From Clostridia bacterium (lineage in GTDB: Bacteria; Bacteroidota; Bacteroidia; Bacteroidales; 4484-276), in assembly GCA_009928785.1 (NCBI GenBank), contig SABY01000001.1, forward strand, positions 23,633 through 87,632: a stretch of 64,000 nt of DNA, in the 5' to 3' direction. This document shows positions 3,629 through 63,613 of the stretch, piece by piece. The translations under genes and the position numbers were made by a program. Within the stretch, counting starts at the first letter, position 1. Every line of letters starts with the position of its first letter. Under the pieces are notes generated by a model, which saw only the letters and a list, made by a program, of their open reading frames with translations, was not told the origin of the DNA and did not search any database.

Positions 3629-3707
3629 AGTATAAAACCAAAACCCTCCGCGAATTCACACGAATTTGGCGAATTTTCATGATAAGGGAACTAGCGATAA
3701 TTCGTTT

Positions 3708-4090
3708 AATTGGCGGAAATTCGCGGACGGCTTGTTTATCCACGAATTCACCCGAATCAGTCGAATTCACACGAAAATTAAAAGACTGATTCCTTTTGAA
3801 GTTTCTATGTCAGCCTGATAGAAAGTCGCAGCAGGGGTCTGTTTTTTTATTTTTAAAATAATTAGCGGAAATTCGCGGACGGCTTGTTTATCCACGAATT
3901 CACGCGAATCAGGCGAATTCACACGAAAATTAAAAGACTGATTCCTTTTGACGTTTCTATGTCAGCCTGATAGAAAGTCGCGGCAGGGGTCTGTTTTTTT
4001 TATTTTTAAAATAATTAGCGAAAATTAGCTGAATTGGCGGAAATTCGCGGACGGCTTGTTTATCGAATTCACACGAAAATTAAAAGACAA
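3708..4090. repeat. Tandem repeat, 152-bp unit, about 2.4 copies (unit starts 3708, 3860, 4032)
   Basis: AAT(T/A)GCGGAAATTCGCGGACGG recurs at offsets of 152 and 172. The 172 offset reflects a 20-bp internal duplication. Each full unit has two GAATTCAC words, a hairpin TTTCTAT-N9-ATAGAAA (3802-3824 in copy 1) and a T-run. Confidence 0.85.
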
Positions 4091-11533: not shown

Positions 11534-12244
11534 TTACAATACCCGCTTCAGCTCCTGCAGATAGCGATTGCGAACCAGCCTGATGTTGTCCATGTCGTTT
11601 TCTTCGCGGTAAAGCCTGATGTTGTCGATCACTCCCTTTGGTGTGAAAAAGACGCCCAAAGCAGCATCGAAATTATTATACTCATCGCTGATTTTCAGGT
11701 TGTGGGTAATGCTCTCAAAAACATCCCAGCTAACCAACGACGGAATAACAAAATAAATCATCTGTGTGGTGCGGGTGTCGTGGTACATTTCGGGTTCGAT
11801 GAGTTCCAGGGTGAAATATTTGCGGATTTTTATCAAACCATAAAACGGATCCATATTGCGCGACTTCATAAAGTCGATGCCGTTTTTGCGATACAGCCGT
11901 ATCAGCTCGTCAATTTTGTCGTAGCCGCTAATGTCTTTGACGCGGATGCAGGGGGTGAGATTATTGAATACAGTAATCTGACCGGGTACGGCATCAAAAG
12001 TATCGGTAAATTCCCGCTTTACCCCCATGGTGGCACGAATCACTTTTTCGCCGGTATATTTGCGGTCGGTAACCAAAAACAGCGAAGTGGGGTTCAGTTG
12101 GTCAGGAATGGTGGTGCCGTGATAGCCTGGGTAAGGCTTCATTGTTTCGAGAACCAGTGCTTTGTCGGTATCATGTTCGACGGTGGAAAGCACCTCCTTT
12201 TTGGTGATTGTTCCCACGGTTTCCAAAATTGTCTTGTTGTTCAT
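11534..12244 (-). CDS. Hypothetical protein (236 aa), no recognisable motif
   Basis: Clean ORF with an ATG start, a non-repetitive sequence and coding-like composition. Confidence 0.55.
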   Translation of the reverse strand: MNNKTILETVGTITKKEVLSTVEHDTDKALVLETMKPYPGYHGTTIPDQLNPTSLFLVTDRKYTGEKVIRATMGVKREFTDTFDAVPGQITVFNNLTPCIRVKDISGYDKIDELIRLYRKNGIDFMKSRNMDPFYGLIKIRKYFTLELIEPEMYHDTRTTQMIYFVIPSLVSWDVFESITHNLKISDEYNNFDAALGVFFTPKGVIDNIRLYREENDMDNIRLVRNRYLQELKRVL

Positions 12245-12371
12245 AGTGTTAATTGTGAATATTTAATGCCTGCGAAAATATGGTTTTTTTTAATTCATAA
12301 ACATTGCATCCCTATTTTTTGATGAAAAGGATCGTGAAAAAATCATTGGGCACATCTAAATCGTCATTTCA

Positions 12372-12520
12372 AGACGCACGTCCCCCGCATGGGCGGGGCA
12401 GGCTGTGCGTCTCTACAATTGAAATCCCAAATCCCAAATCCCAAATCCCAAATCCCAAATCCCAAATCCCAAATCCAATTTCTTACTTCTAACTTCTATT
12501 CTCTTCCCTCTTAATTTCGT
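12372..12520. repeat. Composite intergenic element: nested GC hairpin, CAATTGAAATCC junction, (AAATCCC)x7 and an AT-rich tail
   Basis: Outer stem AGACGCAC/GTGCGTCT (12372-12379 / 12405-12412). Inner stem CCCCGC-ATGG-GCGGGG. Seven perfect heptads at 12422-12470 plus one imperfect. Tail TTCTTACTTCTAACTTCTATTCTCTTCCCTC. Confidence 0.9.
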
Positions 12521-12551
12521 TATTTTGCACCCAAATTTATAATTTCTGCGC

Positions 12552-14426
12552 ATGAATCTGCTCACGGTCGATAATGTTACCAAATCGTTTGGCGAGAAAT
12601 TGCTTTTCGAGAACATCTCCTTTGGAATCTCATCGGGGCAAAAACTGGCGCTGATAGCACGAAATGGCACTGGTAAGACCAGCCTGCTGCGCATCCTCAC
12701 CGGCGCCGAACCGCCCGATAGCGGCCTGGTGACCGTCGGCAACGACGTGCGGATTTCCTATTTACCCCAAAATCCGGAAATGGACGAGAGCCATACCATT
12801 ATGCAATATCTCTTTGCCACCGGCAACAAGATGATGGCGCTTTTGCAGCAATACACAATGCTTTCGTCAGGCCATAATTTTGATAAAGAAACCGCTCAGC
12901 ATATCACGGGTCAGATGGACGAGCTGCATGCCTGGAATTACGAAGCGCGGATAAAAGAAATTCTGAGCAAATTCGACATTGTGGACCTGCAGCAAAGTAT
13001 CGGGCAACTTTCGGGTGGCATGCGCAAAAAGGTGGCGCTGGCCAAGGCGCTTATCGACGATGCCGATCTGGTGATACTCGACGAGCCTACCAACCACCTC
13101 GACGTAACTACCATCGAATGGATAGAAAACTACCTGAATCGCCAAAACCTGGCGCTGTTGCTGGTAACCCACGACCGCTATTTCCTGGATCAGGTTTGCA
13201 ATGAGATTTTGGAAATCGACAATCAGACTTTGTACAAATACCGCGGCAACTACACCTATTTCCTCGAAAAGCGCGAAGAGCGTTTGGCCAACGAAAAAAC
13301 CGAAATCCTAAAAGCTCGCGCCAACTACAAAATGGAGCTTGATTGGATGCGCCGAATGCCGCAAGCCCGCGCTACCAAAGCCAAAGCCCGCGAAGACAAT
13401 TTCTACCGTATCGAAGAAATAGCCAAGACGAGCCTGGGCGAGCAAACGCGCGGCTTCGACGTGGACATGCAGCGCCTGGGTGGAAAAATTTTGGAACTCA
13501 ACAACATCGAAAAAGCCTACGACACCAAGAAGTTGCTCAACGATTTTTCGTACATCTTCAAGAAAGGCGACCGCATCGGGATAATTGGTGCTAATGGCGT
13601 CGGGAAAAGTACGCTGCTGCAAATAATCATGGAAGAGGTGAAACCCGACAAAGGACGCGTGGTGAAAGGCAAAACCCTCGAAATTGGTTATTTCCGCCAG
13701 GAGGGCCTGCCCATGAAAGAAGACAAGCGTATCATCGACATTGTGAAAGATATTGCCGAGCAGGTCGAGTTTAAAAAGGGGAGCATGACGCCGACGCAGT
13801 TTCTTTCGTATTTCAATTTTAAAACCGACATCCATTACAACTATTATTCGAGCCTGAGCGGAGGAGAGCGACGCAAACTATATCTGCTCACCACGTTGCT
13901 GCGCAAGCCCAACTTTCTGATTCTCGACGAGCCTACCAACGATCTCGACATCGATACGCTGAATAAACTTGAAGAATTTCTGATGGGTTACGAGGGTTGT
14001 CTGATGATCGTGTCGCACGACCGCTATTTTATGGATCATGTGGTGGATCATATTTTTGCTTTTGAAGGCGATGGACGCATTCGCGATTACTACGGCAACT
14101 ATTCGGAGTATGCCCGTTTGAGAAGATTACATGAGAAGCAGCAGAAATCGGTTCCGCGCAACGCCGCTCCACGCACCGAAACGCGTAGCAAATCTGATTT
14201 GCAAAAGCCTACTTACAAGCAGGTAAAAGAATACGAAGCGCTCACCGAAAAAATTGATCTTCTCGAACTCGAGCGCGCGGCAATTCTCGACAACCTTAAC
14301 AGCGGCAACGGCACGCCGGATGAGCTGATCAAATGGTCGGAGGGAATTGCTGAAATTATGCGCCGGATTGACGAAGCCAGCGACCGCTGGCTCGAACTGA
14401 GCGAAATCATCGAAGCCGCCAACTGA
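12552..14426 (+). CDS. ABC-F family ATPase (two ABC cassettes, no TM domain)
   Basis: Walker A motifs GTGKTS and GVGKST. ABC signatures LSGGMRKK and LSGGERRK. Charged C-terminal coiled-coil tail. Confidence 0.9.
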   Translation: MNLLTVDNVTKSFGEKLLFENISFGISSGQKLALIARNGTGKTSLLRILTGAEPPDSGLVTVGNDVRISYLPQNPEMDESHTIMQYLFATGNKMMALLQQYTMLSSGHNFDKETAQHITGQMDELHAWNYEARIKEILSKFDIVDLQQSIGQLSGGMRKKVALAKALIDDADLVILDEPTNHLDVTTIEWIENYLNRQNLALLLVTHDRYFLDQVCNEILEIDNQTLYKYRGNYTYFLEKREERLANEKTEILKARANYKMELDWMRRMPQARATKAKAREDNFYRIEEIAKTSLGEQTRGFDVDMQRLGGKILELNNIEKAYDTKKLLNDFSYIFKKGDRIGIIGANGVGKSTLLQIIMEEVKPDKGRVVKGKTLEIGYFRQEGLPMKEDKRIIDIVKDIAEQVEFKKGSMTPTQFLSYFNFKTDIHYNYYSSLSGGERRKLYLLTTLLRKPNFLILDEPTNDLDIDTLNKLEEFLMGYEGCLMIVSHDRYFMDHVVDHIFAFEGDGRIRDYYGNYSEYARLRRLHEKQQKSVPRNAAPRTETRSKSDLQKPTYKQVKEYEALTEKIDLLELERAAILDNLNSGNGTPDELIKWSEGIAEIMRRIDEASDRWLELSEIIEAAN

Positions 14427-22785: not shown

Positions 22786-24090
22786 ATGAGTTCTTTTGAA
22801 ATTTGCGGAGGCAAAAGGCTCAGTGGACAGATTACACCCCAGGGTGCCAAAAACGAGGCGCTTCAGGTGATTTGTGCTGTTTTACTCACGAGCCAACCTG
22901 TTACCATTAGCAACATTCCGGAGATACGTGATGTGATAAAGCTAATCGACCTGCTGAAGTTGCTTGGCGTGGTGGTGGAAAAAACCGACGAGTCAACCTG
23001 GCGCTTTACCGCCTCAGATATTCATCTCGATATTTTGCTTACGGATAAGTTTCGTAAAAAAAGTGCGGAGTTGCGCGGCAGTATCATGATTATCGGTCCG
23101 CTGCTTGCACGCTTCGGTAAGGCATTTATTCCGCAGCCTGGTGGCGACAAAATAGGCCGTCGTCGGCTCGACACGCACTTTATTGGGTTACAAAAGCTGG
23201 GTGCCAAATTCGATTATAACTTTCAGAAGAACTACTACAGCGTGGTAGCGGAGCGTCTGGAAGGTACCTACATGCTCCTCGACGAAGCCTCCGTTACCGG
23301 CACCGCCAACGTACTCATGGCTGCCACCCTGGCGCATGGCACCACCACCATTTTCAACGCCGCCTGCGAGCCTTATGTGGTGCAGCTCTGTAAAATGCTC
23401 AACAGCATGGGTGCCCGAATCGAAGGTATTGGCAGCAATCTGCTGATTGTACACGGTGTAGAAGTTTTATCCGGCTGCAGCCATAAGCTCTTGCCCGACA
23501 TGATCGAGGTGGGTAGTTTTATCGGGCTGGCAGCACTCACCCAATCCAACATAAAAATTACCGGCGTCAACCCGGCCGATCTGGGCATCATCCCCGACGT
23601 TTTTGGAAGGCTCGGCATCCGTATGCAACTCAATGCCGACAGCATCGAAATTCCCGAACAGGAGAGTTACGAGATCGAAACTTTTATGGATGGCTCCATC
23701 ATGACCATCTCTGATGCTCCGTGGCCCGGCTTTACTCCCGACCTGATTAGTATTGCGCTGGTGGTGGCCATACAAGCCAAAGGCAGCGTGTTGATCCATC
23801 AGAAAATGTTTGAAAGCCGTCTGTTTTTCGTTGACAAACTCATCGACATGGGCGCTCGTATTATTTTGTGCGACCCGCACCGCGCCACCGTTATTGGCCT
23901 CGCCCGGCAATACAAGCTGCGCGCTATCCGTATGAGTTCGCCCGACATACGTGCTGGTGTAGCCTTGCTGCTCAGTGCGCTATCGGCTGAAGGCAAAAGC
24001 ATCATCGACAACATTGAGCAGATCGACCGCGGCTACCAAAACATCGATGGACGCCTGCGTGCAATTGGCGCGGAAATTGAAAGAATTTAG
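22786..24090 (+). CDS. murA: UDP-N-acetylglucosamine 1-carboxyvinyltransferase
   Basis: Full-length MurA pattern (GAKNEALQVICA...). The active-site loop PGGDKIGRRRLDTH has Asp (codon GAC at 23146-23148) where E. coli has Cys115. Confidence 0.95.
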   Translation: MSSFEICGGKRLSGQITPQGAKNEALQVICAVLLTSQPVTISNIPEIRDVIKLIDLLKLLGVVVEKTDESTWRFTASDIHLDILLTDKFRKKSAELRGSIMIIGPLLARFGKAFIPQPGGDKIGRRRLDTHFIGLQKLGAKFDYNFQKNYYSVVAERLEGTYMLLDEASVTGTANVLMAATLAHGTTTIFNAACEPYVVQLCKMLNSMGARIEGIGSNLLIVHGVEVLSGCSHKLLPDMIEVGSFIGLAALTQSNIKITGVNPADLGIIPDVFGRLGIRMQLNADSIEIPEQESYEIETFMDGSIMTISDAPWPGFTPDLISIALVVAIQAKGSVLIHQKMFESRLFFVDKLIDMGARIILCDPHRATVIGLARQYKLRAIRMSSPDIRAGVALLLSALSAEGKSIIDNIEQIDRGYQNIDGRLRAIGAEIERI

Positions 24091-24231
24091 AAGTTAGATG
24101 TCAGAAGTTAGATGTTAGAAATTAGATTTAGGATTTTTAATTAGGAAGTAGAGACGCACAGCCTGCCCCGCCCATGCGGGGGACGTGCGTAAATAATTAC
24201 GAATGAATATTGAATTTTGAATTTTGAATTG
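24090..24231. repeat. Composite element: degenerate 14-mers (GAAGTTAGATGTNA), the same GC hairpin as at 12372 (inverted), and (TGAATTT)x~4
   Basis: 24148-24190 is a perfect reverse-complement match to 12374-12416 (43 nt). 14-mers at 24090-24131; heptads at 24204-24231. Confidence 0.9.
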
Positions 24232-27099: not shown

Positions 27100-27122
27100 A
27101 AGAGGAGTCATGTAGTGATGAA

Positions 27123-27275
27123 AGACCAAACCCTTCGGAGGACGTGTGTCTGGAAATGCAATTGAAATCCGAATACCGAATACCGAATACCGAATACTGA
27201 ATACCGAATACCGAATACCGAATAACGAATACCGAATAACGGATAACGAATAACGAATAACGGATAACGAATTTT
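27123..27275. repeat. Composite element: short hairpin region, CAATTGAAATCC junction and 15 heptads (GAATACC grading to GAATAAC/GGATAAC)
   Basis: AGACCAAACCCTTCGGAGGACGTGTGTCT at 27123-27151. The junction at 27159-27170 is identical to 12416-12427. Heptads counted from 27171 to 27275. Confidence 0.9.
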
Positions 27276-39643: not shown

Positions 39644-41920
39644 ATGCTTTTCGATCTCGATCTAATCCAAAACGTTTACAATAAATTTCCTGCAAGAATC
39701 CAAAAGGCGCGTCAGCTTTTAAAGCGTCCGCTTACGCTCACCGAAAAAATCCTCTATGCCCATTTGTGGGATGAGGTGGGAAAAGAATATAACCGTGGCG
39801 CCGACTATGTGGATTTTGCCCCCGACCGCGTGGCCATGCAAGATGCTACCGCCCAGATGGCGCTGCTTCAATTTATGCAGGCCGGGCGCGACAAAGTGGC
39901 GGTGCCAAGCACGGTGCATTGCGATCACCTGATACAGGCGCGCGTGGGAGCCAAAGAAGATTTGAAGGTTGCTAAAGATAACAACCGGGAGGTTTTTGAT
40001 TTTCTTTCGTCGATATCCAATAAATATGGTATTGGTTTCTGGAAGCCGGGTGCCGGCATCATCCATCAGGTGGTGCTCGAAAACTATGCTTTTCCCGGCG
40101 GGATGATGATAGGAACCGATTCGCACACCGTGAATGCCGGCGGGCTTGGCATGATAGCCATTGGTGTAGGCGGCGCCGATGCTGTGGATGTAATGGCCGG
40201 CATGCCCTGGGAGCTGAAGATGCCGCGCATCATCGGTGTAAAATTAACGGGTAAACTCAGCGGATGGACATCCTCCAAAGACGTCATTCTGAAAGTTGCT
40301 GGTATCCTTACGGTAAAAGGCGGAACAGGTGCTATTGTTGAATATTTTGGCCCTGGCGCCGAGCATCTGAGCTGCACAGGCAAGGGCACGATATGTAATA
40401 TGGGCGCCGAGATTGGAGCAACCACTTCTTTATTCGGCTACGACCGGCGTATGTCGGATTACCTGCGTGCTACCGGACGTGCTCTGGTGGCCGACGCTGC
40501 CGATAAAATTGCCGGACATCTAATCGGTGATGAAGAAGTTTATAACGATCCCGGAGAATATTTCGATCAGGTTATCGAAATTGATCTTTCCCAACTGGAG
40601 CCGCACATCAACGGGCCTTTTACCCCGGATTTGGCCACGCCGGTATCGGAATTTGCGCAGGCAGCCCGCGACAACAACTGGCCACTGACGCTGGAGGTAG
40701 GCTTAATTGGTTCCTGTACCAATTCATCTTACGAAGACATTACCCGTGCTGCTTCAGTGGCGCAGCAGGCGCTCGACAACGATCTGGAAGTGAAATCGGA
40801 ATATACCGTTACGCCCGGTTCCGAGCAGGTGCGGTTTACAGTAGAACGCGACGGCTACCTCGACATCTTCGAAAAAATTGGCGGCGTGGTGCTGGCCAAT
40901 GCATGTGGCCCCTGCATCGGACAATGGGCACGCCACAATGCCGACAAGAAAGAGAAAAACTCTATCATGACGTCGTTCAATCGCAACTTTGCCAAACGCA
41001 ACGACGGCAACCCCAACACGCACGGTTTTGTGGCTTCGCCCGAAATTGTAACGGCTTTTGCCATTGCCGGCACCCTGGAGTTTAATCCGCTCACCGACAG
41101 CCTTATTAATAAAAAAGGAGAAAAAATAAAACTGAAAGAACCACAGGGAATCGAACTGCCTATTAAAGGTTTTGCTGTGGAAGACAATGGCTACCAGGAA
41201 CCTGCTCGCGATGGCAGCAACATCAGCGTTGAGGTGGCTCCCGACTCCGACCGTTTGCAGTTGCTTGCGCCTTTTGCACCCTGGGAAGGTCACGACATTA
41301 AAGGTCTAAGATTATTAATAAAAGCCAAAGGCAAATGTACCACCGACCACATTTCGATGGCCGGCCCCTGGCTGCGCTACCGTGGTCACCTGGATAATAT
41401 TTCCAACAACCTGCTTATTGGCGCCGAAAATGCCTTTACCGGAAAAACCAATCTTATCAAAAACCAGCTAAACGGTGCATATGATGCAGTGCCGGCGGTG
41501 GCAAGAGCTTACAAAGCGCAAGGCATTGGAACCATTGTGGTGGGCGACGAAAATTATGGCGAAGGCTCCTCACGCGAACATGCCGCTATGGAGCCGCGTC
41601 ATCTGGGCGTTAGAGCTGTGGTGGTGCGTAGTTTTGCACGCATACACGAAACCAACCTAAAAAAGCAAGGGATGCTCGCGCTTACCTTTGCCGACAAAAC
41701 CGATTACGGTAAAATTATGGAAGACGATACTTTCGACATCACAGGTCTCGAAACCTTTGAGCAAGGCCGTCCGCTGCAACTCATCGTTCACCACTTCGAC
41801 GGCACCACCAACAAAATGGAGATGCTGCACACCTATAGTCCGGTACAAATAGAATGGTTTAAAGCCGGCTCGGCGCTCAACCTTATCAAAAAGCAGAATG
41901 TGTTGACGGGGAGGAAGTAG
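39644..41920 (+). CDS. acnA: Aconitate hydratase (about 750-aa type)
   Basis: Aconitase family blocks including the Fe-S ligand contexts GSCTNSS and [10 protein letters not shown], plus the swivel domain. The stop TAG (41918-41920) lies inside the first GGAAGTA heptads. Confidence 0.9.
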
Positions 41921-42223
41921 GAAGTAGGAAGTAGGAAGTAGGAAGTAGGTAGCAGGAAGTAGGTAGTGGTTAGAACAAAGAAATTAGAATTTACCGTTGA
42001 GATGCCCGATCGTGTTCGTTTAATATTGTTGATGAATGAAACCTCTGCAGGCTTCCTGTCAATAATTCCCGGATTCATCAGGGATAGATGGAAGAAGAGC
42101 CAACTGCGAACTGCGAACTGTGTACTGTGGACTGTGGACTGTGAGCTGCCAACTGCGAACTGAGAACTGTGAGCTGCCAACTGAGAACTGCGAACTGTGG
42201 ACTGCGAGCTGCCAACTGCAACT
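41913..42223. repeat. Composite element: (GGAAGTA)x~8, a ~130-bp core, then 17+ heptads of the form GNNNACT
   Basis: Left array 41913-41968. Right array 42099-42223 (GCCAACT, GCGAACT, GTGGACT, GTGAGCT...), with a higher-order ~28-bp pattern. Confidence 0.9.
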
Positions 42224-42434
42224 GCCTTTTGTTGATTTTTTAACCCAAAACCTGGGTAAAGGTATCCACAAGCTATTGGGTTGATAAATTTTTGTATTTT
42301 AAACTAAATATCAGAAAACCAATGATATAGTTTTGAAATTCCTTCGATTTCCTTTTTTATCCCTTTTGGCACGATACTCTCAAGTTCCCTTTTATTGTTA
42401 TAAATAAATTGTTAAACCTAAAAAGTAATACGCC

Positions 42435-43380: not shown

Positions 43381-43419
43381 AATCCCGGCTGCATGTGTGC
43401 GCCGGGATTTATTTTTTTT
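43381..43419 (+). terminator. Rho-independent terminator after the acidic lipoprotein gene
   Basis: AATCCCGGCTGCATGTGTGCGCCGGGATTT stem-loop followed by ATTTTTTTT. Confidence 0.6.
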
Positions 43420-43452: not shown

Positions 43453-43490
43453 TAGAACAAAATCCCGGTTGCAGTTGTGCTCCGGGATTT
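43453..43490 (-). terminator. Terminator-like hairpin for the minus-strand PLP enzyme gene (paralogous to the hairpin at 43381)
   Basis: AATCCCGGTTGCAGTTGTGCTCCGGGATTT; on the minus strand it is followed by TTTTGTTC. Confidence 0.45.
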
Positions 43491-44946: not shown

Positions 44947-45083
44947 AAACAAACAAACACCGAACACCAAACAACAAACACCAAGCAACAAACTTGAGCG
45001 TAGCTGCCTGCCCCGACCCATCGGGGAAATCCCGAGAGCTTTGCGATTCGGGAAACAAACAACGAACAACAAACAACGAACAG
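44947..45083. repeat. Composite element: (CAAACAC/CAAACAA)x~7, two GC hairpins, then (AAACAAC/AACGAAC)x~4
   Basis: Hairpins CCCCGA-CCCA-TCGGGG (45011-45026) and CCCGA-N12-TCGGG (45031-45052). Heptad tracts at 44947-44993 and 45053-45083. Confidence 0.85.
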
Positions 45084-47303: not shown

Positions 47304-47689
47304 TAACCTTTCTATCTCCTCCTTCATCGGACCGTAGAAAGTTGCTACCCCCCCCACAGACTTTCGAGCGTCCGAAGGACCTCGAAACGTCAACAAACGA
47401 AACTAACCTTTCTATCTCCTCCTTCATCGGACCGTAGAAAGTTGCTACCCCCCCCACAGACTTTCGAGCGTCCGAAGAACCTCGAAACGTCAACGAACGA
47501 ACCTAACCTTTTCTATCTCCTCCTTCATCGGACGATAGAAAGTTGCTACCCCCCCACAGACTTTCGAGCGTCCGAAGGGACCTCGAAACGTCAAACAAAC
47601 AACAAACAACAAACAACAAACAACAAACAACGAACAACAAACAACGAACAACAAACAACAAACAACGAACAACGAACAACAAACAACGA
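47304..47689. repeat. Three tandem copies of an exactly 100-bp unit (starts 47304, 47404, 47504) running into ~14 heptads (AACAAAC/AACGAAC)
   Basis: Copies 1 and 2 differ at 3 positions. Each unit has hairpin A (CTTTCTA...TAGAAAG, 47308-47341), a C7-8 run and hairpin B (TTTCGAG-C-GTCC-GAA-GGAC-CTCGAAA, 47362-47387). The heptad tract spans about 47593-47689. Confidence 0.9.
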
Positions 47690-62937: not shown

Positions 62938-63444
62938 TTAAAGTTTAATTGATATGCCAAATTTGCCACCGGAAAAAGCATTACCACCACCAAATTCAAG
63001 GTTGAGGCCAACTTTGTCGGATAAATAGTACCTGCCACCAACCTGGGCACCTAATCCTATTCCTGAACTGTGATCTCCGTCGTAGTCGCCCGGAGATGAC
63101 CATACAAAAAATCCCAGATTTAGTCCTGCATAAAAATCCCAATTTTGTGGAATATTAAGCAAAGTGTTAAAGTGGTAATTTCCATTCCCCGAAAACCCCA
63201 TTACATTGTGATGGTAGTCATGGTTTTTCCAATCCTCATTGTAAGAACGATAAGAAAATTCACCGCCCAACGTAATGTCCTTATGAACACTATAATCTAA
63301 TCCAACATAAAACGGGACGCCCCAATTTGAAAAGCCAATTCCTAAATTAAGTTGAGCTTTACCAATGGGTAAAGGGCTTTGACCAAATGCAAAGCCGGAA
63401 AACATGAATAAAGCAATTGTTGTTAAAATGATCTTTGTTTTCAT
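62938..63444 (-). CDS. Small outer-membrane beta-barrel protein (OmpA-like 8-strand/porin family)
   Basis: Signal peptide ending FAFGQ, alternating G/Y-rich beta strands and a terminal F-x-I-x-I-K-L pattern. Confidence 0.7.
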   Translation of the reverse strand: MKTKIILTTIALFMFSGFAFGQSPLPIGKAQLNLGIGFSNWGVPFYVGLDYSVHKDITLGGEFSYRSYNEDWKNHDYHHNVMGFSGNGNYHFNTLLNIPQNWDFYAGLNLGFFVWSSPGDYDGDHSSGIGLGAQVGGRYYLSDKVGLNLEFGGGNAFSGGKFGISIKL

Positions 63445-63613
63445 TATATCAGTTATTATTTATTAATCCGACTCATCTGGCTTTTCGGATTCGCCCCGTT
63501 TTTTTTATTGGTATCTGGATTCCAAAATTGATCTGAAATGGTATTTATGTTTTTATCATCGTTTACTTTTGGTGTATTAATTTTGAAAAGCTAAAACGAC
63601 TTATTGCAATACG

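Follow-up and report, generated by a model that had tools for sequence, protein, structure and literature searches.

The stretch analysed here, 64,000 nt of contig SABY01000001.1 (assembly GCA_009928785.1; hereafter the window), carries a gene for a Uup-like ABC-F ATPase, preceded by a nested hairpin and a run of AAATCCC heptamers. Close homologues of this ABC-F protein carry the JGI name uup. Both repeats sit between the start of the ABC-F gene and that of a divergent gene of 236 aa, in which a Pfam scan returned no family (Table 1); the gap is one between divergent promoters, and no gene ends inside it. The feature is made up of two non-coding repeat classes that are common throughout this Bacteroidota lineage. 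The host is placed in Bacteroidota by a type IX secretion system (T9SS) protein with a Por_Secre_tail domain, by TAnnTTTG promoter boxes and by nearest homologues that are labelled Bacteroidales. A protein 100% identical to the ABC-F ATPase, NCA83963.1, has been deposited as 'MAG: Clostridia bacterium' (MAG, metagenome-assembled genome). This label looks wrong and is probably a binning or taxonomy error.

The hairpin is a nested palindrome. Its outer stem of 8 bp pairs AGACGCAC (12372-12379) with GTGCGTCT (12405-12412), and its inner stem of 6 bp pairs CCCCGC (12383-12388) with GCGGGG (12393-12398) around the loop ATGG. The CTAC at 12413-12416 of the plus strand is the GTAG tag of the palindrome read on the minus strand, on which the whole element is GTAG-AGACGCAC-AGCCTG-CCCCGC-CCAT-GCGGGG-GAC-GTGCGTCT. 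This nested hairpin is the minimum free energy (MFE) structure, at -29.7 kcal/mol as RNA (z = -4.0) and -18.6 kcal/mol folded as DNA (z = -5.1), and in the folds ATTTCA and TGAAAT add an outer pairing that flanks it. The heptamers begin next to it. Tandem Repeats Finder (TRF) scores the perfect AAATCCC array at 110, with 100% matches, and the 95 nt from the hairpin to a conserved promoter block consist of AATT and 13 heptads in one register. What a preliminary description of this DNA had called a pyrimidine-rich tail proves to be five degenerate AACTTCT-type heptads in register with the AAATCC units. The hairpin and array that it placed immediately upstream of the ABC-F gene are borne out by the sequence, by TRF and by the MFE fold, as are its stems, loop and CTAC; however, it counted CTAC and CAATTGAAATCC (12416-12427) as separate parts, although both include the C at 12416.

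Table 1. Features of the divergent gap upstream of the ABC-F gene and further palindrome copies in the window
Feature	Position	Strand	Basis and remarks
ABC-F ATPase, Uup-like	12552-14426	+	two ABC_tran domains, ABC_tran_Xtn, C-terminal ABC_tran_CTD (Pfam)
Divergent 236-aa gene	11534-12244	-	open reading frame list; syntenic in L019, L023, L026, L032
Conserved left intergenic block with -7-like box of the 236-aa gene	12245-12365	.	alignments of relatives; identical in L033, L034
Bracketing inverted repeat around the hairpin, ATTTCA (12366-12371) / TGAAAT (12420-12425)	12366-12425	+	fold
REP-like palindrome (REP, repetitive extragenic palindromic), long form	12372-12416	-	sequence, recurrence search, folds
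Heptad lattice, AATT + 13 x 7 nt in one register	12417-12511	+	fills the whole space from palindrome to promoter block
Perfect array (AAATCCC)x7.9, hypervariable, recently expanded	12422-12476	+	TRF, strain alleles
Five degenerate older heptads, common to relatives	12477-12511	+	AATTTCT TACTTCT AACTTCT ATTCTCT TCCCTCT
Core-promoter-like conserved block and short leader	12512-12551	+	invariant columns across five relatives; genome-wide TAnnTTTG positions
Second palindrome copy, intact	24152-24192 in 24082-24230	-	AGAAGTT x6.4 (24082-24126) and TGAATTT x3.9 (24204-24230) either side
Decayed palindrome (CCCTTCGGAGGACGTGTGTCT, 27120-27151), then CAATTGAAATCC motif, then (CCGAATA)x14.9	27120-27272	+	TRF, repeat search
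Variant palindrome GTAG-CTGCCTGCCCCGACCCATCGGGG (45000-45026) and second hairpin	44954-45082	+	CAAACAC and AACAAAC heptamers either side

Two other views of the locus were considered and set aside. The open reading frames (ORFs) at 12304-12492 (plus strand) and 12413-12742 (minus strand) were rejected as coding, being open only since AAATCCC is free of stops in every frame. An origin in plant telomeres or contamination was likewise rejected, since no rotation of TTTAGGG gives GGGATTT and the genes on either side are bacterial and syntenic.

Array length differs between close strains. In three strain-level Logan contigs whose ABC-F genes are 99.3-99.5% identical in nucleotides to that of the window, the hairpin is kept, and the spacer from hairpin to promoter measures 74 nt (L035), 67 nt (L036) and 67 nt (L037) against 95 nt in the window. 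All four lengths equal 4 + n x 7, with 10, 9 and 9 heptads in the strains and 13 in the window. The unit is AAAATCC, present four or three times, where the window has eight CAAATCC, and the strains have one extra AACCTCT. Non-repetitive intergenic DNA is nearly identical across these strains, with one or two differences per gap. All the strain contigs break within the hairpin, as expected of a multi-copy palindrome. The strain alleles are short-read (Logan) assemblies, and Logan assemblies use k = 31; a one-copy difference in a 33-bp repeat between L035 and the window was disregarded as a likely assembly collapse at that k. The change in array length that the preliminary description had envisaged is thus real, and copy number is not invariant across strains; distant relatives have a single unit or none.

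At the same site L032, the nearest relative at species level, with an ABC-F protein 96% identical in amino acids, has the long hairpin, a single AAATCC and then a short palindrome, AGACGCAC-CTCC-GTGCGTCT-CTAC, that abuts the promoter block. Throughout the syntenic 22 kb of L032, heptamer runs are short, imperfect or absent where the window has 6-15 units at the same gaps, and this contrast suggests that a lineage-specific burst expanded many loci at once. In L027 (92%) there are one AAAATC and AACTTCT heptads, and CATTTC-CAATTAAAATC stands in place of the hairpin, which, with 9 nt of flank only, is at most suggestive of an unoccupied palindrome site. L023 (92%) has a decayed hairpin, a nested insertion resembling a miniature inverted-repeat transposable element (MITE) and TATTTTC/TAACTTC heptads. 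In that insertion (L023 7790-8005, about 250 bp) a GC-rich hairpin of 20 bp is enclosed by long terminal inverted repeats, GATTCTTCGCTGCGTTTAGAATGACA ... TGTCATTCTGAACGAAACGCAGTGGAGTGAAGAATC, and the whole is bracketed by a second inverted repeat. AACTTCT-type units occupy, in L023 and L027, the place of the degenerate heptads of the window. In L019 (91%) the 7-nt remnant AGACGCA is all that is left of the hairpin, beside (TAATCGTTCATTGT)x5, and neither hairpin nor array was found at the orthologous gap of L026 and L024 (70-71%). Other gaps behave alike: 3' of the LGT, DUF2061 and EPSP_synthase-family genes, relatives carry arrays at the same place with other units and other copy numbers.

Conservation indicates where the promoter of the ABC-F gene probably lies. 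In Bacteroidetes the established -7 consensus is TAnnTTTG (Bayley et al. 2000; Chen et al. 2007). Of 39 window genes, 14 have an exact TAnnTTTG at 14-53 nt upstream of the ATG, against about one expected by chance. Two boxes with one mismatch precede the ABC-F gene, TAATTTCG at 12512-12519 (32 nt before the ATG) and TTATTTTG at 12520-12527 (24 nt before). The box of the divergent gene is TATTTTCG (minus strand, 12273-12280), at a distance of 28 nt upstream of the ATG of that gene. Both ABC-F boxes fall within a block, TTAATT-C-TTATTTTGCA at 12510-12529, that is invariant in an alignment of five relatives, one of which is a 70% relative with neither hairpin nor array; the block (TTAATTTCGTTATTTTGCA) comprises TAATTTCG-TTATTTTGCA at 12512-12529. 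From the end of the perfect array it is 35 nt to the first of the ABC-F boxes and 75 nt to the ATG. A scan of the intergenic region for sigma-70 promoters and intrinsic terminators found none, a scan that does not extend to Bacteroidetes-type promoters.

Because the conserved -7-type block lies downstream of the whole hairpin and array, the transcription start site (TSS) of the ABC-F gene would lie downstream of both, and the two would cover roughly -45 to -150. The preliminary description had reasoned that changes in array length could shift promoter or leader geometry; as predicted from sequence, the array instead lies outside the core promoter and the leader. A change in copy number would then move only upstream DNA relative to the promoter, with a shift of 7 nt, about 240 degrees in helical phase, for each unit. 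The aligned relatives have entirely different DNA just upstream of the invariant block, and among them no conserved regulatory site was evident there.

The same two repeat classes recur across the window. A strict scan (at least 18 of 21 matches at lag p) found eight arrays with a period of 7, whereas periods 4-6 and 8-13 had none, which leaves 7/14 as the sole period with strict arrays in the window; of the 470 bases in these arrays, 457 lie in intergenic DNA. TRF finds roughly a dozen arrays of heptamers or 14-mers between 12 and 48 kb, and heptamer arrays occupy 8 of the 29 intergenic gaps of at least 100 nt. Their units are diverse (AAATCCC, AACTTCT, CCGAATA, AACAAAC, AACTGCG, AGGAAGT and others), as are their neighbours, which include uup, an inositol monophosphatase-family gene, nfeD, an AhpC/TSA-like gene, DUF5063, aconitase, an Lrp/AsnC regulator and a T9SS cargo gene. 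The specificity to the ABC-F gene implied by the preliminary description does not hold up: the hairpin and similar heptamer arrays also flank murA-like and dnaJ/SUI1 genes, and aconitase, lrp-like and other genes too.

The palindrome is likewise a dispersed family, tallied in the 64 kb as two intact copies and two decayed or variant ones. A second occurrence of the 41-nt hairpin, with 2 mismatches, is on the minus strand (24152-24192), directly 3' of a gene of the EPSP_synthase family that resembles murA; 100 shuffles gave no match. There GTAG-AGACGCAC lies at 24148-24159; it is present likewise in L019, L023, L028, L029 and L031, and L030 has TTAG. Members of the same family were found in L019, L023, L028-L032 and L035-L037. 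Related copies stand at orthologous sites in the gap 3' of the EPSP_synthase-family gene (L019, L023, L029, L032) and in the SUI1 gap (L029), and at non-orthologous sites in L030 and L031. At the site orthologous to 27120, L029 has the long palindrome intact and no long array.

All copies seen lie between ORFs. The long copies share one polarity, GTAG-AGACGCAC-AGCCTG-CCCCGC-NNNN-GCGGGG-GAC-GTGCGTCT, with the tag always on the same side of the inner asymmetry, and the short copies, GTAG-AGACGCAC-N4-GTGCGTCT, are perfect 8+4+8 inverted repeats. The outer stem is kept; the inner part is a loop of 4 nt at its shortest and a nested hairpin of 25 nt, built on the core CCCCGC-NNGG-GCGGGGCAGGC, at its longest. 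A metagenome scan with the 22-nt right half returned four further copies (JGI) from two or three distinct loci, with loop variants and duplicated left arms. None of the four is followed by an array, and hairpin and array are therefore separable. Contigs scanned with the inner motif gave chance matches in GC-rich genomes and five Chitinophagales MAGs. In these five Chitinophagales or Taibaiella MAGs (L002, L008, L009, L011, L017) the 21-nt inner core CCCCGCATGGGCGGGGCAGGC is identical, the outer stems are different yet still pair, and heptamers are absent, which suggests a wider Bacteroidota family of palindromic elements. The core CCCCGC-NNGG-GCGGGGCAGGC is invariant in ten copies, the five from Chitinophagales with unrelated outer stems among them, and this points to sequence-specific recognition rather than mere structure.

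Taken together, we consider it probable that the feature is a hypermutable simple-sequence repeat (SSR) beside a REP-like element, both of them genome-wide, and not a device specific to the ABC-F gene. The REP-like palindrome, as a mobile or selfish element, would occupy permissive space between two divergent promoters. A single AAATCC seed beside it would have expanded recently on top of older, decayed heptads, and the lattice would grow and shrink in 7-nt steps, most likely by slipped-strand mispairing in replication, which the adjacent stable hairpin may speculatively favour. Any effect on ABC-F expression would then be a by-product, at most modulatory, rather than the work of a dedicated switch; a modest change of promoter strength with array length is possible.

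Several other explanations have to be weighed against the pairing of a hypermutable SSR with a REP-like element. If heptad number altered the spacing or helical phase of an upstream activator, or of the divergent promoter, relative to the ABC-F promoter, the array would make that promoter tunable or phase-variable and give expression variants within a population, in the manner of the 7-bp repeats that precede hmw1A/hmw2A in Haemophilus influenzae. The strain-level polymorphism is real and moves in 7-nt steps, the perfect units indicate recent, frequent change, the array abuts the region of the expected -33 element, and expression control by heptamer SSRs has precedent (PMC8262952, PMC12721329). 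We nevertheless regard such a promoter as unlikely: the array leaves the -33/-7 spacing and the leader unchanged, many unrelated housekeeping genes are flanked by the same arrays, a housekeeping ABC-F gene of the Uup type would be an untypical contingency gene, and what lies just upstream of the -7 block is completely different from relative to relative (AACTTCT or AATCGTC heptads, a second palindrome in L032, unrelated DNA in L026), with no conserved element. An RNA element, be it a long 5' untranslated region (UTR) acting as attenuator or protein-binding leader, a small RNA or a terminator, is very unlikely. The hairpin is very stable, and some ABC-F genes of the antibiotic-resistance (ARE) type are controlled by leader attenuation. 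Heptamers near start codons in Beggiatoaceae have also been proposed as sites of a translational regulator (PMC4679880). However, the ABC-F of the window is Uup-like rather than of the ARE type, no U-tract follows the hairpin on either strand, the terminator scan found none there, and the divergent gap contains no gene end. The hairpin is absent or decayed at the orthologous site of L019, L023, L026 and L027, and the conserved promoter-like block lies downstream of hairpin and array. Rfam 15 gave no match at the locus at the gathering threshold or at E <= 10 beyond chance level, the latter listing being two snoRNA-model matches with E = 5-6. When ten hairpin copies were folded jointly with RNAalifold, the invariant inner stem supplied the only common pairs and showed no covariation, the outer stems being of unequal length and not aligning.

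Binding by protein has been considered in two forms, with the heptads as iterated sites for a nucleoid protein or regulator, or with the 20-bp palindrome AGACGCAC-N4-GTGCGTCT as the operator of a dimeric regulator. The lattices do hold their position at orthologous gaps as their sequence turns over, and the short palindrome is a perfect 8+4+8 inverted repeat. Yet the array units share no common motif, which makes a sequence-specific binder unlikely, the half-sites stand 4 to 25 nt apart among copies, which is incompatible with one operator geometry, palindrome copies occur both 3' of genes and between promoters, and L032 has lost arrays without a compensating change; we hold binding of this kind to be very improbable indeed. 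The minus strand of the array, (GGGATTT)8, is also a G3N4 motif, lying antisense and upstream of an ORF, from which a G-quadruplex or i-motif element might be proposed. The eight G3N4 units are seen directly in the sequence, ViennaRNA with G-quadruplex terms puts a quadruplex in the minus-strand MFE structure (-19.1 against -17.3 kcal/mol without, RNA parameters), and the position matches the antisense, upstream-of-ORF bias of Rehm et al. (PMC4692102). But the array is 75 nt from the ORF and not within 50 nt, and its unit, GGGATTT, departs from GGGNATC. The strain alleles have TGGATTT or GGATTTT units with no G3 run, so that the potential is private to the window allele and not conserved, and G-rich units are lacking in most of the other window arrays (CCGAATA, AACAAAC, AACTGCG, AGGAAGT). 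A quadruplex function is very improbable.

Some observations weigh against the preferred reading of two genome-wide repeat classes with no dedicated role here. Downstream of the EPSP_synthase-family gene a palindrome is present in five lineages (the window, L019, L023, L029 and L032) with inner parts of 4-25 nt; its outer stem is clearly kept in three of the five (window, L019, L029), degenerate in L023 and decayed in L032, and this retention could mean a function for some copies, for example protection of mRNA 3' ends. The copy in the ABC-F gap is intact and near-identical to the one 12 kb away, while the orthologous L023 copy has decayed. This fits ongoing activity or gene conversion, but fits selection as well. 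The L035 allele, with a 30-nt periodic run, could be a collapsed longer array, which the 23-nt runs of L036 and L037 cannot be. A regulatory consequence for the ABC-F gene is possible, as judged from sequence, and the preferred reading does not account for the period of 7.

Two mildly interesting features are left unaccounted for, the strictness of the heptad register and the way in which arrays are anchored beside palindromes. It is conceivable, though quite unlikely, that the lattices are not products of passive slippage and that a lineage-specific process with its anchor at the GTAG palindromes actively builds and maintains them. For example, the replisome or an enzyme like the REP-associated tyrosine transposases (RAYTs) might nick the DNA or stall at the hairpin, with 7-nt templated re-synthesis to follow. 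Such a process would explain why arrays stand beside palindromes at several loci, why the register is kept up to the promoter block, why arrays persist at orthologous gaps as units turn over, and the simultaneous expansion at many loci in this strain's lineage; if true, it would provide a mechanism for the long-unexplained heptamer bias of prokaryotic SSRs. On the preferred reading, with slippage beside a REP-like element, the apparent hairpin-plus-repeat 'leader' before a translation-factor-like gene is a local sample of genome-wide repeat dynamics. GTAG-tagged REP-like palindromes and strictly period-7 arrays that differ between strains at about 99.4% gene identity are hereby documented in an uncultured Bacteroidota lineage. 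The arrays are useful strain markers and a cause of metagenome assembly breaks, and they could be a natural system for asking why 7 nt is a favoured bacterial slippage unit.

Further repeats of the window may be recorded here. The TAG stops of the murA-like gene (24088-24090) and of aconitase (41918-41920) fall in the first purine-rich heptamer unit, AGAAGTT and AGGAAGT, respectively; at the murA-like site relatives have a TAA stop and then a different sequence. Between aconitase and a 167-aa gene, a gap of 915 nt without any ATG-initiated ORF of at least 90 aa contains (AACTGCG)x17.9 (42102-42225), with a 28-nt super-period of four variant heptads repeated. In the convergent gap between the 167-aa gene and a Cys/Met pyridoxal phosphate (PLP)-enzyme gene, a hairpin with an AATCCCG stem occurs twice, 80 nt apart (43381-43409 and 43461-43489); it is another small repeated palindrome and possibly a bidirectional terminator. 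At 47304-47687, within a 784-nt gap upstream of a T9SS-sorted protein with a Cleaved_Adhesin domain, a 100-bp unit is repeated three times at 94% identity and followed directly by (AACAAAC)x13.4; each unit has the hairpins CTTTCTA/TAGAAAG and nested GACTTTCGAG-CGTCC-GAA-GGAC-CTCGAAACGTC, plus a C8 tract. A 152-bp tandem repeat (x2.1, 95% identity) lies at 3707-4051 between Ppnp-like and Fic genes; within it are 10-mers of the AATTCGCGGA type and a T-run that comes after a TTTCTAT/ATAGAAA hairpin. The sole Rfam match in the window is the DUF805 RNA motif (RF03081) at 63462-63530 on the minus strand, with 68.5 bits against a gathering threshold of 51.1, directly upstream of the minus-strand ORF 62938-63444.

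Among known systems, the palindrome is closest in kind to the GTAG REPs, which Di Nocera et al. (2013) define as extragenic elements with a stem of 5-13 bp, a loop of 2-20 nt and an unpaired GTAG outside the stem; these occur as singletons, dimers and clusters, often 3' of genes, at tens to thousands per genome (PMC3733652). Like the elements of the system of REPs, REP doublets forming hairpins (REPINs) and RAYTs, the family described here is a short, extragenic, multi-copy palindrome with an 8-bp stem and GTAG at one end outside the stem. Its copies stand alone, duplicated or clustered (L030, L031, L032), often just 3' of genes, and their presence, absence and decay vary among relatives. The 4-nt loops of the short forms (L019, L023 and the second L032 copy) fall within the published range, while the folded 25 nt of the long form are slightly beyond it. 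What sets the long form apart from REPs is its 25-nt inner hairpin, whose core, CCCCGC-NNGG-GCGGGGCAGGC, is shared by Chitinophagales MAGs in which the outer stems are different. The 2013 survey did not name Bacteroidetes among the carriers of GTAG REPs (PMC3733652), although RAYT/TnpA_REP subclasses 2.4 and 2.6 were later described in that group, their structures being termed 'double foot' or 'atypical' (PMC6006769). The Pfam scan of the window proteins revealed no Y1 transposase, and none is among the Pfam families listed for the called genes of the syntenic loci. The palindrome, which has the published features of GTAG REPs, is a candidate REP whose membership is incomplete.

The arrays, for their part, resemble the long SSRs (5-11 nt) of prokaryotes. 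According to Mrazek (2007), as represented in PMC4679880, the long SSRs of SSR-rich prokaryotes are most often heptanucleotides, with polymerase slippage put forward as the cause. Heptamer arrays have been documented sporadically in cyanobacteria (short tandemly repeated repetitive sequences, STRR), in Beggiatoaceae and in a few Bacteroidetes, for which 'other heptamer direct repeats' were noted as well (PMC4679880). The window arrays are tandem 7-nt units, nearly all intergenic, at many loci and in variable copy number; the array at the ABC-F gene has perfect head-to-tail units, far beyond chance, and whole-unit copy-number polymorphism between close strains. The TAACTGA repeats lie mostly within a few nt upstream of start codons (MacGregor 2015, PMC4679880). 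In contrast to these, to STRR and to other heptamer SSRs, the window arrays have diverse units rather than one dominant heptamer, are not concentrated within a few nt of start codons and are often anchored at a palindrome, and their unit turns over at a fixed site between close relatives; none of the TRF arrays of the window has TAACTGA as its consensus. In Xanthomonas and Nostoc, heptamer repeats of the type GGGNATC form G-quadruplexes (Rehm 2015, PMC4692102). These repeats share with the array at the ABC-F gene a heptamer SSR with an antisense G3 tract upstream of an ORF, and with the window arrays a dispersed, intergenic distribution in variable number; however, the unit here is GGGATTT, the sister strains have GG without G3, and most arrays in this genome cannot form quadruplexes.

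The hmw1A/hmw2A loci of H. influenzae also have a 7-bp unit upstream of the gene, with a copy number that is polymorphic between close strains. There, however, the repeats lie between the promoter and the coding region of an adhesin and grade its expression, whereas the array described here precedes what is predicted to be the core promoter of a housekeeping gene and is one of many genome-wide. A contingency locus is marked by a repeat in the promoter spacer, the 5' UTR or the coding region, and the predicted position of the array is outside all three. Both the palindromes and the heptamer SSRs of this lineage belong to known kinds.

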